Source of the DNA: Bdellovibrionota bacterium
GTDB lineage: Bacteria > Bdellovibrionota > UBA1018 > CAIPTA01 > JAALKR01
Length of the DNA: 64,000 nucleotides
Assembly (NCBI GenBank): GCA_965207455.1
Contig: CBDBMJ010000001.1
Location: 1,120,001-1,184,000 of the forward strand
Direction of reading: 5' to 3'
The translations under genes and the position numbers were made by a program. The notes beneath the pieces were generated by a model. That model was not told where the DNA came from and did not search any database. It worked only from the letters and a program-made list of their open reading frames with translations. Positions 1,678-47,464 of the stretch are shown here, in pieces (positions within the stretch are counted from its first letter, which is position 1; every line of letters starts with the position of its first letter).

Positions 1678-2320
1678 ATGAAGCCCAAGAATTTAACTAT
1701 CCACAATAGTTTAGTCGAGTTTTTAATCTTCACCAGCCAGAGTGAGGCTAATGGTAGTAGTATTGAGGTTTACTACAAGGATGGGAGTGTTTGGCTCACT
1801 CAGAAACGAATAGCCCAATTATTTGATGTGAGAGTGCCCACAATCAATGAGCATTTAAAAAAATATTTAAAAACAATGAAGTTAAATAAAATTCAGTTAT
1901 TAGGAAATTCCTAATAACTGCCGCTGACCAAAAACAATACAACACAAAATTTTACAATCTTGATGCTATCATCTCGGTAGGATATCGAGTCAATTCGGTA
2001 AAAGCCACAGAATTTCGACGCTGGGCGACTGAGATTCTAAGAGAGTTTGCCATTAAGGGTTATGTGCTAAGTCACAGATATTTATGCCACTAGCATGATG
2101 TTTCCGTTGGAAAGAATTATCGTAAACAAGAGGAGCTTGAGTCTCTTGCCAGAATTGTGAGCGCCTATCTTGATTTGGCAGAAGATCGAGCTACGCGCAA
2201 TATTCCTACAACAATGCAGGATTGGTCTAGTCGACTAGATGTTATTTTAGATCGTAACGACCGTGAAATTTTAAACGATGCAGGCACTATTAGTGCTAAC
2301 GTTGCCAAAGATTTGAGACT
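1678..2320 (+). pseudogene. rhuM: RhuM-family protein pseudogene (frameshift plus internal deletions)
   Basis: Fragments in different frames (VWLTQKRIAQLF; YNLDAIISVGYRVNS..ATEFRRWAT; SAYLDLAEDRA) are collinear with the intact RhuM at 46433-47464. Confidence 0.8.
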
Positions 2321-2437
2321 AAGAAAATTGCAACCCAGTTCGCTCTCCCCTCGACTAACCCCTATCGGCTCGTATTTGGCACTATTGAGCGCCTGAACTA
2401 TTTTTGGGTTGCTCTCCCAAGTACCCACCGACCTCTA

Positions 2438-26502: not shown

Positions 26503-27134
26503 TTATCTCCCCGATCCATTGCCGCCTTGATACTCAGGTCTCTTCTTATAACTCTCCTCAGAAATACGATCTCCTTTTTTAATACCTTTAGAAGCACTCT
26601 TTTCTTTATAGATATCATCTAAAGCTAATTGAGCTTCTGCATTCCCCTGCTTTGCTGCTTTTTCATACCAATACATTGCTTTTTTTAAATCTTTAGAAAT
26701 ACCCTTTCCTTTATAGTCTTTAGAGCCATCCCTTCCTTTATATATATATCACCTAAAGCAAATTGAGCTTTTGCATATCCCTGCTTTGCTGCTTTTTCGT
26801 ACCAACGAATGGCTTCCTTATAATTTCGTTTAGTCCCTTCTCCTCTATCATACATACGACCCAAAGCAAATTGAGAATATGCATCTCCATCACTCATTGT
26901 TCCAACTTTACTTGCCGCTCTATAATACCAATGCAGCGCCTTTCTGAAATCTTTAGAAGTACCCCATCCATAATAGTATATATCAGCTAATGTTTTCTCT
27001 GCTCCTACCTTTCTTTGCTCTGCCTCTTTCGTTATTCTACTTATATATTCAGCAGAATGACTGTAACCCGTATTGGATACAGTGCTAAAAACAAGTAACG
27101 TAACTAAATAAAAATTAATTCTACTTTTTTTCAT
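26503..27134 (-). pseudogene. Secreted SEL1-repeat protein frameshifted in a (TA)n tract
   Basis: SEL1 motifs continue in another frame after 26739-26749, to a stop at 26503 homologous to the paralog ends. Confidence 0.8.
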
Positions 27135-27617: not shown

Positions 27618-29045
27618 TTATTCCCCCGATCCACTGCTGCTTCCTATTTCCTCGCTGCCTCTATGCCCAGGCCTCTTATAACTTTTAGAGGCATCTCCTC
27701 CTCTATCATAAATAATACTTAAATTATATTGAGCTTTTTTGTGTCCCTGCTTTGCTGCTTTTTGAAACCAATGAATCGCTTCTTTACGACTCTCAGAAAG
27801 AATTCCTCCCTTTCCAAAATATATAAGAGCTAAAAAAAATTGAGCTTCTGCATTCCCCTGATTTGCTGCTTTTTCATACCAATGCATTGCTTTTTTTAAA
27901 TCTTTAGAAACACCTTCTCCTTTATAGTACATATTGCCTAATTTATATTGAGCATATTGAACTCCTTGATCCGCTGCCTTCCGATACCAACGAACTGCTT
28001 CCTTATAATCTTTCTTAGTGCCTTCTCCTCTATAATACATATCGCCTAAAATAAATTGAGCTTTTGCATGTCCCTGAGCTGCTGCTTTTCTATACCAATA
28101 AAATGCTTTCTTATAGTCTCGCTCAGTACCTCGTCCTTTCTTGTACATATTACCTAAAGCAAATTGAGCTTGTGTATTCTCCTGATCTGCTGCTTTTTTA
28201 TACAAATCAAATGCTTTCTTATAATCTTGCTCAGTACCTTCTCCTCTATAATACATACCACCTAAAATAAAGTGAGCTTTTGCATGTCCCCGAGCTGCTG
28301 CTTTTCTATACCAATAAAATGCTTTCTTATAGTCTCGCTCAGTACCTCGTCCTTTCTTGTACATATTACCTAAAGCAAATTGAACTTTTGTATTCTCCTG
28401 ATCTGCTGCTTTTTTATACCAATATAATGCTTTCTTATAATCTTGCTCAGTACCTTCTCCTCTATAATACATATCGCCTAAAATAAATTGAGCTTTTGCA
28501 TGTCCCTGAGCTGCTGCTTTTCTATACCAATAAAATGCTTTCTTATAATCTTGCTCAGTACCTTCTCCTCTATAATACATACCACCTAAAGCAATTTTAG
28601 CTCTTGGAAATCCCCACTTTGCTGCTTTTTTATACAAATCAAATGCTTTCTTATAATCTTGCTCAGTACCTTCTCCTCTATAATACATACCACCTAAAGC
28701 AGTTTGCCCCATCTCTGCTGATTTTCTATACCGATATAATGCTTGCTTATAGTCTTGTTTAACACCTTCTCCATAATGGTACATTCCACCCAAAATAAAT
28801 TGAGAATGCATATCTGCATTATCTGCTGCTTTTTTATACCAATATAATGCTTGCTTATAGTCTTGTTTAATACCTTCTCCATAATGGTACGCATTAGCTA
28901 ATCTATACTGAGAAGTACTATTTCCTTTATATGCCTCATCCTTATATCTAGCTACATTGCTTGCAGTATTACTGTAACCCGTATTGGATACAGTGCTAAA
29001 AACAAGTAACGTAACCAAATAAAAATTAATTCTATTTTTTTTCAT
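27618..29045 (-). CDS. Secreted SEL1-like repeat protein (about 11 repeats)
   Basis: Signal peptide; repeated AQFxLGxMYYRGEGTEQDYKKAxYWYxKAA; internal 216 bp DNA repeats. Confidence 0.95.
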   Translation of the reverse strand: MKKNRINFYLVTLLVFSTVSNTGYSNTASNVARYKDEAYKGNSTSQYRLANAYHYGEGIKQDYKQALYWYKKAADNADMHSQFILGGMYHYGEGVKQDYKQALYRYRKSAEMGQTALGGMYYRGEGTEQDYKKAFDLYKKAAKWGFPRAKIALGGMYYRGEGTEQDYKKAFYWYRKAAAQGHAKAQFILGDMYYRGEGTEQDYKKALYWYKKAADQENTKVQFALGNMYKKGRGTERDYKKAFYWYRKAAARGHAKAHFILGGMYYRGEGTEQDYKKAFDLYKKAADQENTQAQFALGNMYKKGRGTERDYKKAFYWYRKAAAQGHAKAQFILGDMYYRGEGTKKDYKEAVRWYRKAADQGVQYAQYKLGNMYYKGEGVSKDLKKAMHWYEKAANQGNAEAQFFLALIYFGKGGILSESRKEAIHWFQKAAKQGHKKAQYNLSIIYDRGGDASKSYKRPGHRGSEEIGSSSGSGE

Positions 29046-29528: not shown

Positions 29529-30956
29529 TTATTCCCCCGATCCACTGCTGCTTCCTATTTCCTCGCTGCCTCTATGCCCAGGCCTCTTATAACTTTTAGA
29601 GGCATCTCCTCCTCTATCATAAATAATACTTAAATTATATTGAGCTTTTTTGTGTCCCTGCTTTGCTGCTTTTTGAAACCAATGAATCGCTTCTTTACGA
29701 CTCTCAGAAAGAATTCCTCCCTTTCCAAAATATATAAGAGCTAAAAAAAATTGAGCTTCTGCATTCCCCTGATTTGCTGCTTTTTCATACCAATGCATTG
29801 CTTTTTTTAAATCTTTAGAAACACCTTCTCCTTTATAGTACATATTGCCTAATTTATATTGAGCATATTGAACTCCTTGATCCGCTGCCTTCCGATACCA
29901 ACGAACTGCTTCCTTATAATCTTTCTTAGTGCCTTCTCCTCTATAATACATATCGCCTAAAATAAATTGAGCTTTTGCATGTCCCTGAGCTGCTGCTTTT
30001 CTATACCAATAAAATGCTTTCTTATAGTCTCGCTCAGTACCTCGTCCTTTCTTGTACATATTACCTAAAGCAAATTGAGCTTGTGTATTCTCCTGATCTG
30101 CTGCTTTTTTATACAAATCAAATGCTTTCTTATAATCTTGCTCAGTACCTTCTCCTCTATAATACATACCACCTAAAATAAAGTGAGCTTTTGCATGTCC
30201 CCGAGCTGCTGCTTTTCTATACCAATAAAATGCTTTCTTATAGTCTCGCTCAGTACCTCGTCCTTTCTTGTACATATTACCTAAAGCAAATTGAACTTTT
30301 GTATTCTCCTGATCTGCTGCTTTTTTATACCAATATAATGCTTTCTTATAATCTTGCTCAGTACCTTCTCCTCTATAATACATATCGCCTAAAATAAATT
30401 GAGCTTTTGCATGTCCCTGAGCTGCTGCTTTTCTATACCAATAAAATGCTTTCTTATAATCTTGCTCAGTACCTTCTCCTCTATAATACATACCACCTAA
30501 AGCAATTTTAGCTCTTGGAAATCCCCACTTTGCTGCTTTTTTATACAAATCAAATGCTTTCTTATAATCTTGCTCAGTACCTTCTCCTCTATAATACATA
30601 CCACCTAAAGCAGTTTGCCCCATCTCTGCTGATTTTCTATACCGATATAATGCTTGCTTATAGTCTTGTTTAACACCTTCTCCATAATGGTACATTCCAC
30701 CCAAAATAAATTGAGAATGCATATCTGCATTATCTGCTGCTTTTTTATACCAATATAATGCTTGCTTATAGTCTTGTTTAATACCTTCTCCATAATGGTA
30801 CGCATTAGCTAATCTATACTGAGAAGTACTATTTCCTTTATATGCCTCATCCTTATATCTAGCTACATTGCTTGCAGTATTACTGTAACCCGTATTGGAT
30901 ACAGTGCTAAAAACAAGTAACGTAACTAAATAAAAATTAATTCTATTTTTTTTCAT
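29529..30956 (-). CDS. Secreted SEL1-like repeat protein, identical paralog
   Basis: Same 475 aa sequence as 27618-29045. Confidence 0.95.
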   Translation of the reverse strand: MKKNRINFYLVTLLVFSTVSNTGYSNTASNVARYKDEAYKGNSTSQYRLANAYHYGEGIKQDYKQALYWYKKAADNADMHSQFILGGMYHYGEGVKQDYKQALYRYRKSAEMGQTALGGMYYRGEGTEQDYKKAFDLYKKAAKWGFPRAKIALGGMYYRGEGTEQDYKKAFYWYRKAAAQGHAKAQFILGDMYYRGEGTEQDYKKALYWYKKAADQENTKVQFALGNMYKKGRGTERDYKKAFYWYRKAAARGHAKAHFILGGMYYRGEGTEQDYKKAFDLYKKAADQENTQAQFALGNMYKKGRGTERDYKKAFYWYRKAAAQGHAKAQFILGDMYYRGEGTKKDYKEAVRWYRKAADQGVQYAQYKLGNMYYKGEGVSKDLKKAMHWYEKAANQGNAEAQFFLALIYFGKGGILSESRKEAIHWFQKAAKQGHKKAQYNLSIIYDRGGDASKSYKRPGHRGSEEIGSSSGSGE

Positions 30957-45174: not shown

Positions 45175-45878
45175 AATTCTCTCCTCCTCTTATTCCCGGC
45201 ACTCTTCAGAAAAGGTGGAAGCGATTTCTTGCCGAAGTGGTGCTAAAGGACGGATCGTTAGTGACCGTACATTGTCCCAACCCGGGCAGTATGCGAGGAA
45301 ATGCCATACCCGGCTCCAAAGTTCTCCTCTTAGACACAGGTAAAGATCACCTTCAAAAAGGCAGAAAGCTCCGCTACCGATGGACTATTGCTCAAACCAA
45401 TGCAAACCCCGTTTGCATCGACACCTCCATTAGTAACCACGTTGTCCAAAAAGCACTGATGGAAAAAAAAATTCCAGAACTGAGCCACTACACCAACATA
45501 GAAGCCGAATACTCCATTGGAAACTCACGCCTAGATTTCCTACTACACACCAACCACAAATCCCCATGCTTTCTAGAAGTGAAAAGCGTGAGCATGGTGG
45601 AAAATGGAATTGCCTATTTCCCGGACAGTGTTACCAAGCGAGGACAAAAACACCTTATGGAACTCATGGAACTCAAACACCAAGGCCACCGAAGCGTGAT
45701 ATTTTTTCTCGTCCAATGCTCTGGACTACAAACCATGCGTCCAGCCGACCATATCGACCCAGTCTATGGCAAAACACTGAGAGCCGCTGCCAACCTGGGA
45801 GTAGAAATCCTAGCCTACGATATTAAAGTCCAATCCCAAGAGATACAATGGGGCAAGAGGATTACAGTGGAGTTATAA
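45165..45878 (+). CDS. sfsA: SfsA-family nuclease-like protein
   Basis: KRFLA, HCPNPGSM, EVKSV, FPDSVTKRGQKHL. Confidence 0.93.
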   Translation: MVVKFSPPLIPGTLQKRWKRFLAEVVLKDGSLVTVHCPNPGSMRGNAIPGSKVLLLDTGKDHLQKGRKLRYRWTIAQTNANPVCIDTSISNHVVQKALMEKKIPELSHYTNIEAEYSIGNSRLDFLLHTNHKSPCFLEVKSVSMVENGIAYFPDSVTKRGQKHLMELMELKHQGHRSVIFFLVQCSGLQTMRPADHIDPVYGKTLRAAANLGVEILAYDIKVQSQEIQWGKRITVEL

Positions 45879-46206
45879 AAATTGCCTTACAAGGAATTAT
45901 TGTTCTTACGAATAATAGCCCTTCTAGAAATAATAGCAACAGAAAAAGGGGTTGTCGGTTTTAATGTATCCCAACTACTTTCTTGCTTTTTGTCCTCTAG
46001 TGTAGTGGAAGCACCCATTGACTCACAAAAAAATCTCCCGAAAGGCCGTATTTTAAATAAGTTATAGATCGACCGTACCATAATGCAGTCCTAAGAAAAT
46101 ACCGCTAAAAAAATTAACAATATATTTATTAGTAATACTGGAACTCTATAGTAAGAGTGCCAAGCCATATAAAGCTATATTCTTTAAAGGTTTTAGCGGC
46201 CCTTTT

Positions 46207-46343
46207 TTGTGCCCTCCTCCTGAACTGTTCGGAAATTCCGAACAGTTGAACTAAGGAAGCTTGCTTTTGTCCGCCACTACACCAAGACCACCGAAGCATG
46301 ATATTTTTTCTCGTCCAATGCTCTGGACTACAAACCATGCGTC
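46207..46343. repeat. Intergenic mosaic: 46 bp copy of internal rhuM sequence plus 65 bp copy of internal sfsA sequence
   Basis: 46207-46252 = 47212-47257 exactly; 46279-46343 matches 45677-45741 with 2 mismatches. Confidence 0.9.
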
Positions 46344-46432: not shown

Positions 46433-47464
46433 TCATGACTTCTCACTCTTTAGGATTTTTTTCATTTCTTTTTCAAAATCGGACTCAATTTCTTGAGTTT
46501 TATTAAACTCCTTATATTCATTTATAGCCTTATCATTTGCTTTTTTCCTAGAAATAGCACTCTTGCCATGCAATATCTTGTATTCATTAAAATTTAAAAA
46601 TTTATCCACACTGCCAGCAAGATTCTCCATGGTAAAGGTTTGACGGTTTTCAATAATATTTTCTATATAATCAAAAAAACCAGAAACGGTCCTCTCCAAT
46701 TTTCTGATCTCTTCTTCTTCTAAGTAGTTCTTTGCTACAGTTACATCACTGGACAAAACTCTTCCCTTGGGCGCATTTTTCCAAGTGGAGAGCCCCATAT
46801 GGGGCTGTCTATGATCAGTCTTATCATAAACAATCTCTGCAGCTGTTTTGCCAGTCATGGCAAAATGAAATTTATTCTGTACCATCGCATAGAAGTTTTT
46901 TGTGATTTCTGAACTGGGATTGTAGTCGATACTACACTCAGCAAAAATATCAGTAATCTGTAAATAAACTCTCCGCTCACTTGCCCTGATGGAACGAACT
47001 TTTTCCAGCAATTCTTGAAAGTAGTCTTTGCCAAAAACTTGCGAACCCTGTTTAAGACGTTCATCATCCACCACAAATCCCTTGATAATATATTCCTTAA
47101 GGATTTTAGTGGCCCATATTCGAAACTGAATGGCTCTCTTAGAATTGACACGATAGCCTACGGCAATAATGGCATCGAGATCATAGTACTCTAAGAGGCG
47201 CTTCACATTTCTTGTGCCCTCCTCCTGAACTGTTCGGAAATTCCGAACAGTTGAACTTCGCTCTAACTCGTTGGAATCATAGATATTTTTCAAATGCTCA
47301 CTAATAGTCGTTTTGGATACATGAAACAATTCAGCAATGAGCTTCTGCGTCAGCCACAGTGTTTCATTTTGCAGAAAAACCTGCAATTTAACCTCATCAT
47401 CGGGAGTTGTATAGAAAAGAAAATTTTTGCTTATTGAGATGTCTTGTTCGCTACCCATGCCCAC
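46433..47464 (-). CDS. rhuM: RhuM-family protein
   Basis: WLTQK, LDAIIAVGYRVNS, IRASERR, VQNKFH, WKNAP, AKNYL. Confidence 0.9.
   Translation of the reverse strand: MGMGSEQDISISKNFLFYTTPDDEVKLQVFLQNETLWLTQKLIAELFHVSKTTISEHLKNIYDSNELERSSTVRNFRTVQEEGTRNVKRLLEYYDLDAIIAVGYRVNSKRAIQFRIWATKILKEYIIKGFVVDDERLKQGSQVFGKDYFQELLEKVRSIRASERRVYLQITDIFAECSIDYNPSSEITKNFYAMVQNKFHFAMTGKTAAEIVYDKTDHRQPHMGLSTWKNAPKGRVLSSDVTVAKNYLEEEEIRKLERTVSGFFDYIENIIENRQTFTMENLAGSVDKFLNFNEYKILHGKSAISRKKANDKAINEYKEFNKTQEIESDFEKEMKKILKSEKS

Follow-up and report, generated by a model that had tools for sequence, protein, structure and literature searches.

A palindrome inside the coding sequence of rhuM covaries with the predicted recognition helix of its own product and is a candidate operator carried within an anti-phage gene

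Why should two divergent copies of rhuM carry, at the homologous place in their coding sequence, palindromes that differ in their bases and agree in being perfectly symmetrical? Both copies lie in the window, by which is meant the whole analysed stretch of 64,000 nucleotides of a Bdellovibrionota genome. The intact rhuM gene (46433..47464, minus strand) matches PF13310 (profile search, E 3.7e-104, 347.9 bits against a curated cut-off of 33.7) and PADLOC PDC-S05 (E 7e-150), and its product is predicted to consist of an N-terminal winged-helix domain and a helical C-terminal domain. A perfect 25-bp palindrome (12-1-12) at 47228..47252 codes for TVRNFRTV and has its centre 56 nt 3′ of the His55 codon. 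The second copy is a pseudogene (1678..2396, plus strand) with frameshifts, stops and a large internal loss, in which codons for the helix VPTINEH (1834..1854, plus strand) are followed at the homologous place by a perfect 27-bp palindrome (13-1-13; 1894..1920) reading VIRKFLIT, with a predicted specificity that differs from that of the intact gene. The earlier note on this DNA had described the two dyads and four arm differences between them, each mirrored in the opposite arm, and all of this is borne out, the differences lying at -11, -10, -8 and -5 from the centre. Perfect arms of at least 12 bp with a loop of 0-3 nt are found at only eight places in the 2.38-Mb genome, three of which are rhuM-derived, and even one such dyad was present in only 3/100 Markov-simulated windows, so that the palindromes of the window are not a product of chance.

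The arrangement is common to the family. A profile search gave 310 hits, of which 289 could be parsed (the other 21 being fragments or having an unparsed helix), leaving 241 unique rhuM modules, and in 239 of these a 12-1-12 dyad is centred 56 nt (212 modules) or 55 nt (27 modules) after the codon of an invariant helix histidine; in the remaining two the best dyad is mis-centred. Across 100 genes, which carry 62 different 25-mers, an average of 10.4 of 12 positions were paired, compared with 7.4 under synonymous codon resampling, with 49/62 distinct sites at p<0.05, such that the codon-level comparison of homologs proposed earlier shows a symmetry in excess of what the peptide demands. Cognate arms pair at 6.27 of 7 positions and arms taken from different genes at 3.06 (62 distinct 25-mers), while at least 10 pairs were reached by 52/62 sites and, elsewhere in these genes, by only 3/57,452 centres. 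Codon wobble positions face one another across the dyad, and these pairs are kept in 205, 211, 171 and 212 of 212 genes. The central base is A or T in all 239 modules, including 174/174 K/N/E/D codons compared with 67% of such codons elsewhere. The dyad symmetry of the rhuM site is therefore a constraint on the DNA and does not depend on the peptide, the arms covarying at synonymous positions throughout the family, in keeping with the earlier suggestion that the nucleic-acid symmetry itself is maintained. The earlier note had also proposed looking for flips of the central base, none of which was seen in the assembled contigs, a material that cannot show rare flips.

An AlphaFold model of RhuM (mean pLDDT 76.8, pTM 0.56) places this DNA within the predicted structure of the protein. 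The N-domain elements H38-45, H49-61, E71-80 and E83-92 (pLDDT about 74-93) describe a putative winged helix, a helix-turn-helix followed by a beta-hairpin wing, and the palindrome codes for the first strand of the modelled wing. The predicted recognition helix comprises residues 49-61 (KTTISEHLKNIYD; codons 47276..47314, minus strand). The DNA-binding domain of pSK1 Par (8csh) aligns with the N-domain at Z 6.8 and rmsd 2.3 over 53 residues, RacA and Xis also align (Z 4.8-6.8 across the three, all below 8), and phage Bro-N, KilA-N and antirepressor proteins match the N-domain fold in BFVD. Sequence searches gave no significant match to a relative in the PDB, Foldseek against the PDB returned no row at E <0.001, and hhalign of RhuM against single neighbouring KilA-N/Bro-N proteins gave a probability of <1%. 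For the C-terminal domain, fold and sequence searches found no enzymatic fold or catalytic role, a search of the Atlas with this part reached scores of only 0.77, and the whole protein has a weak fold match to DdrC, a DNA-compacting dimer. These likenesses have a bearing on one alternative, in which the palindrome, like the sites of pSK1 Par, RacA and ParB-parS, is a centromere-like loading or nucleation point at which RhuM would be activated or self DNA marked. The nearest folds of the N-domain are indeed centromere-binding winged helices, and the DdrC match and the single unique site per genome would fit; but matches at Z 8 or below are silent on function and an activating site would be useless to phages, so that this alternative is regarded as improbable.

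If RhuM binds the palindrome, the bases of the half-site should be related to the recognition helix. Mutual information (MI) with site bases -3 to -8 across the 239 modules peaks at helix columns -7, -6, -5, -4, -2 and -1 from the histidine, reaching 1.28 bits; it is near zero at the conserved isoleucine, weaker one residue ahead of the N-cap, and at most 0.17 bits at all 14 columns between helix and site. As the AlphaFold helix begins at K49, the peak columns correspond to the N-cap and to helix positions 1, 2, 3, 5 and 6. At position 1, R occurs with G(-7) in 61/62 modules, K with T in 59/59 and Q with A in 6/6; at position 2, K/R occurs with C(-6) in 21/21 and D with C in 13/14; at position 3, N occurs with A(-4) in 42/44 and T with G in 73/74; and at position 6, K/R occurs with C(-4) in 117/119 and E with G in 57/58. 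Such pairings agree with the usual contacts of Arg/Lys with guanine, Glu with cytosine and Asn/Gln with adenine. Both alleles of the window follow the code, KTT-SE occurring with GTTCGG and VPT-NE with ATTAGG, and sites of the type ATT(A/C)GG, resembling that of the pseudogene, are found in intact genes with VPT/IPT-NE helices. There are 23 core types among the rhuM sites. When each wing class was left out in turn, the 4-mer core was predicted correctly in 71/74, 37/41, 24/24 and 15/19 modules (147/158 in total). With 139 unseen protein modules the predictions held in 117/124 and 117/128 cases, compared with shuffled means of 42 and 62 and maxima of 60 and 79, about six of the misses being register mis-assignments that were still counted as misses. 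Half-site bases thus covary with recognition-helix residues in the manner that would be expected of the cognate operator of a dimeric helix-turn-helix protein, a comparison drawn from sequence covariation.

That the helix tracks the DNA rather than the peptide it encodes is indicated by natural controls. In the 27 modules with the shorter spacing the site is read in a frame shifted by 1 nt, giving another peptide (TCAKIAQV compared with NVQKMHIA) with the DNA core kept, the RSV/RTV helices retaining GTGC and four RST-TE helices carrying GTCG. Cross-frame prediction succeeded in 15/19 cases drawn from few helix types, all 15 successes being RSV/RTV and the 4 misses RST. Among 48 genes that encode the same V/I-R-x-x-R peptide, all 16 with K or R at position 2 have a synonymous C/G pair and all 32 with other residues there have T/A, and the near-identical genes L023 and L040 directly show such a synonymous step linked to position 2. 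GC content was considered as a confounder of this choice between C/G and T/A and was excluded, GC3 being equal. Prediction across held-out classes, new proteins, the shifted frame and the synonymous pair (48/48) therefore ties the helix to the DNA and not to the encoded peptide.

Helix, site and wing are exchanged between rhuM genes as a cassette of ~150 nt. The genes concerned are mostly >84% identical on both sides and ~50-70% identical inside the cassette, with swapped tracts that start ~90 nt before the palindrome and stop ~60 nt after it. Close gene pairs differ in core in 17/43 cases, and a tree of the C-terminal part with 192 rows shows 97 changes of core. It might be asked whether the palindrome is itself the means of exchange, as a site-specific recombination site, or else a stem in the mRNA, both of which had been offered in the earlier note beside an intragenic operator for RhuM. 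The ends of orphan fragments do fall within a few bases of the site, whose AAC...GTT ends resemble attC cores. The exchange tracts end well outside the palindrome, which argues against recombination at the site, as does the lack of a constant recombinase partner, a recombinase or integrase being the nearest neighbour at 2/46 loci. For an mRNA stem an excess of G-T mismatches on the coding strand would be expected and is not found (26 G-T compared with 35 A-C among 164 sites). This pair of readings is scarcely credible, and of the options in the earlier note it is the operator that the helix-base code favours, by inference.

Concordance on trees has to be read with the cassette in mind. On supported branches of the C-terminal tree, independent pairs were concordant in 22/22, 18/18, 22/22 and 20/20 cases for the traits listed, a result that in part reflects block swaps, since helix and site are ~65 nt apart and move as one cassette. 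A module tree built without the variable columns gave 83 core changes among 21 states, compared with 157 when shuffled; it offers only 3-7 supported independent pairs per trait, nearly all concordant, with 2/7 traits at p<0.05, its power being weak. The stronger argument is the architecture, in which helix and core are separated by class-specific outer arms, and a given helix-core pair turns up in two or three wing classes and in both frames. The same evidence bears on a reading without any reader protein, in which arm-to-arm template switching keeps the quasi-palindrome perfect and the link to the helix is due to hitch-hiking or to residue-residue coevolution in the fold. The strand does form a hairpin of 11 bp (-13.4 kcal/mol, z -3.8), the parts of the cassette are passed on together and the phylogenetic signal on the module tree is real. 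Such a reading fails on the A/T-only centre, the helix-tracked synonymous pairs, the DNA core kept across the frameshift, the near-zero MI at the intervening columns and the recurrence of helix-core pairs in up to three wing classes with class-specific outer arms between them, and is held to be very unlikely.

Short rhuM reading frames with an N-domain only and proteins with two N-domains were also observed (L037, L045, L046, L097, L104, L182 and L254; P0121-P0125, P0171 and P0196, loci and proteins pooled), each module having its own helix-site pair, and these forms are possibly reservoirs for cassette swaps. Co-located modules share a core in 0/19 pairs, a figure compatible with chance (P about 0.11).

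RhuM has been linked to defence on several grounds. One member of PDC-S05, a candidate system in PADLOC, lowered plating of T7 and T5 about 1000-fold and of T4 about 10-fold on E. coli B (PMC12881386), RhuM is enriched beside predicted targets of programmed inversion in a list dominated by restriction-modification (R-M) genes (PMC9881135), and it has been proposed as a toxin domain in R-M loci (PMC3710099). In keeping with this, an R-M gene neighbours rhuM at 14/46 loci and another defence-type gene at 10 more. The family is very large, the N-domain profile reaching 34,621 clusters (50% identity) at E up to 0.001.

Within bacteria the site keeps almost entirely to its gene. Among 301 genomes of the phylum, 12/13 R-type sites lie inside rhuM genes or their relics and one outside, and the R-type site is absent from the 274 genomes without the domain. 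In the genome of the window (G000) the cognate site of the intact rhuM is found only in the gene and in an orphan copy ~180 bp beyond its stop codon, a 50-bp piece (46203..46252, minus strand) of 98% identity with its palindrome at 46223-46247; a second, related orphan of ~40 bp lies elsewhere in the same genome (G000:C1:1744481-1744519). The first orphan is adjoined by a 65-bp duplicate (46279..46343, plus strand) of an internal piece of sfsA (45677-45741), so that 46203-46343 forms a patchwork insertion of one rhuM and one sfsA piece, which looks like a local templated (template-switch) duplication. An assembly artefact is contradicted here by unitigs from the short reads of run X1, possibly the source sample itself; reads of run X2 gave small pieces only.

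This distribution has to be weighed against ordinary autorepression through an intragenic roadblock operator, the stand-alone copies being relics or the sites of other regulators. Intragenic operators are known, such as the PurR box in purB and lacO2, and rhuM has one site per gene at a median of 208 nt from the nearest upstream Met. Several orphans, namely 46203-46252, L047 and L298, keep gene-like flanks as relics would. Autorepression alone would hardly account for as many as 23 core types or for the frequency of cassette swaps, and cognate promoter copies are lacking: none was found near gene starts across 239 loci, where extra cognate hits number 9 compared with about 3 expected, only two of them perfect and both of these gene fragments. 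A promoter operator or a regulon was accordingly rejected, there being no second cognate site near gene starts nor, beyond the orphan, elsewhere in G000. A scan for sigma-70 promoters and terminators around rhuM gave results at chance level.

It is in viral contigs that the site is found free of the gene. In IMG/VR the exact site of the window lies outside rhuM in 12/18 distinct contexts and a second site of the family in 10/12, or 20/28 for both sites pooled after three contexts of one tail-gene family are merged, whereas two control palindromes gave no viral hits. These stand-alone sites are mostly intergenic among phage genes, and 0/21 viral records that carry one encode the N-domain (7 of the records are at least 90% complete and 14 are under 90%). 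Viruses and bacteria differ in the share of sites outside rhuM (Fisher p 1.7e-4, for samples that are non-independent and differ in pattern). Under autorepression alone, decoys of this kind would derepress the defence gene and so harm the phage that carries them, and this, together with the points above, makes autorepression on its own unlikely as a full account, though it is the most probable of the alternatives considered. An unbiased scan with outer arms gave 21/112 near-symmetric hits compared with 0.74 expected; a RhuM-type core was present in only 6/17 symmetric viral sites outside rhuM-like genes, which indicates that other families share the palindrome design. BLAST of a 35-mer against named phages gave 29 weak records. 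Three viral contexts have a second RhuM-type site in tandem within the intergenic region (L287, L288 and L300), of another specificity in L287 and L288. An exact in-frame site of the xPA type, reading ATVSKMETV, occurs in the gene for a phage distal tail protein (Dit; L428, L461 and L500, 65 viral contigs), and on another viral contig a phage reverse transcriptase gene (L301:2049-3023) lies ~500 bp from a stand-alone site.

Going beyond the observed position, symmetry, code, cassette exchange and distribution of the rhuM site, it is very probable from the covariation that a RhuM dimer binds the palindrome of its own gene. That the bound state restrains the defence protein, and that bare phage copies exploit this, is argued by analogy with BstA-aba and is judged to be evenly balanced. 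Taken as a whole, the reading of the palindrome as the binding site of RhuM's own winged-helix domain, with the bound state holding an anti-phage protein in check, is the one that we favour, with moderate confidence. The dimer would read the two half-sites through contacts of the Arg/Lys-G, Glu/Asp-C and Asn/Gln-A type, in consequence of which each allele would recognise its own gene only. Bound RhuM would dampen its own transcription by a roadblock ~210 nt into the reading frame, and binding would also park the protein on its site. Loss of host DNA, or the replication of DNA without the site, would then unleash RhuM, while phages with bare palindromes would silence it as aba silences BstA, and conflict between host and phage over such sites could drive the 20-odd specificities. 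One difficulty for pure sequestration is stoichiometry, as a single copy of the site would hold only about one dimer.

The nearest precedent is BstA-aba, likewise an anti-phage protein with a KilA-N-like helix-turn-helix domain and a short element that overlaps its own gene, acts as DNA and is cognate to each variant (Owen et al. 2021, PMC8585504). In rhuM as in BstA-aba self-immunity, the locus of the defence gene thus contains a DNA element specific to the variant. The aba element spans 63 bp over the start of its gene and has terminal CCCGCC direct repeats, and in the available text of that paper no palindrome is mentioned and direct binding is not shown (PMC8585504). The RhuM element, by contrast, is a 25-bp dyad that lies ~210 nt inside the reading frame, where the DNA-binding domain is encoded; its helix-base code can be read, and its role in immunity is a prediction. 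It is not aba and, by analogy, may work like it. The available portions of the accounts of PDC-S05 and PF13310 concern the same family, its R-M and defence neighbourhood and the anti-phage activity of one member, and are silent on a DNA site, a winged-helix fold, a code and a mechanism (PMC12881386, PMC3710099). In Nematomorpha mitochondria perfect inverted repeats are likewise kept within protein-coding sequence (PMC6649704); as far as the accessible text goes, these reach 284 bp, are numerous, lie in many genes and have no cognate protein named, whereas rhuM has one short site in a fixed register (PMC6649704).

The kinds to which the rhuM site may be compared are thus intragenic operators and one cognate DNA immunity element. 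Besides purB and lacO2, the protein-binding palindromes parS and OB lie near or in parB and korB. All of these are fixed regulon or partition sites, whereas the rhuM site lies in codons of the very domain that would bind it, is unique genome-wide and has diversified together with the helix. Neither the rhuM palindrome nor the helix-base code was described in the literature searched, most subscription papers being beyond reach, and no example was met there of an operator coded by the binding domain's own codons that combines a readable code with dozens of exchangeable specificities.

For a very large family of obscure mechanism, each gene thereby spells out a concrete DNA target for its protein, so that a binding experiment is fully specified, and the more than 20 cores amount to a natural code of protein-DNA recognition. 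The site provides a candidate mechanism for cognate DNA self-immunity, which was left open by the BstA-aba paper, and short non-coding palindromes in phage genomes may be an unrecognised currency of anti-defence. Codon optimisation of rhuM genes for defence screens would erase what is probably a functional element.

More tentatively, and with rather less confidence than the restraint of RhuM itself, the proposal can be widened. RhuM, and likewise KilA-N, Bro-N and DUF1016 proteins, might carry a DNA antitoxin in the codons of their own DNA-binding domain, a private palindrome that would silence each allele, with the protein firing on destruction of host DNA or on foreign replication and phages acquiring bare palindromes that act against defence as non-coding elements; the ~150-nt cassette might then serve as a programmable library of orthogonal repressor-operator pairs. 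Own in-frame palindromes were observed in neighbouring genes for KilA-N (two genes), DUF1016 and Bro-N, with 12, 12, 12 and 10 of 12 pairs and a next best of 8-9 (L115:4977-5798, L159:3118-3954, L170:5031-5495 and L114:2745-3587), which suggests the same self-site design in other DNA-binding families of defence.

Other long perfect palindromes of the genome include intergenic 13-1-13 dyads, one of them duplicated (G000:C1:1470358-1470384; C3:35701 and C3:39109), and a 24-mer palindrome is repeated at 226-bp spacing (G000 C1:1227684, 1227910 and 1228136). In the window, the same AT-rich quasi-palindrome occurs three times at a spacing of ~1.9 kb (27106-27127, 29017-29038 and 30928-30949) together with two reading frames of equal length, 475 aa (27618-29045 and 29529-30956), suggesting a tandem gene repeat.
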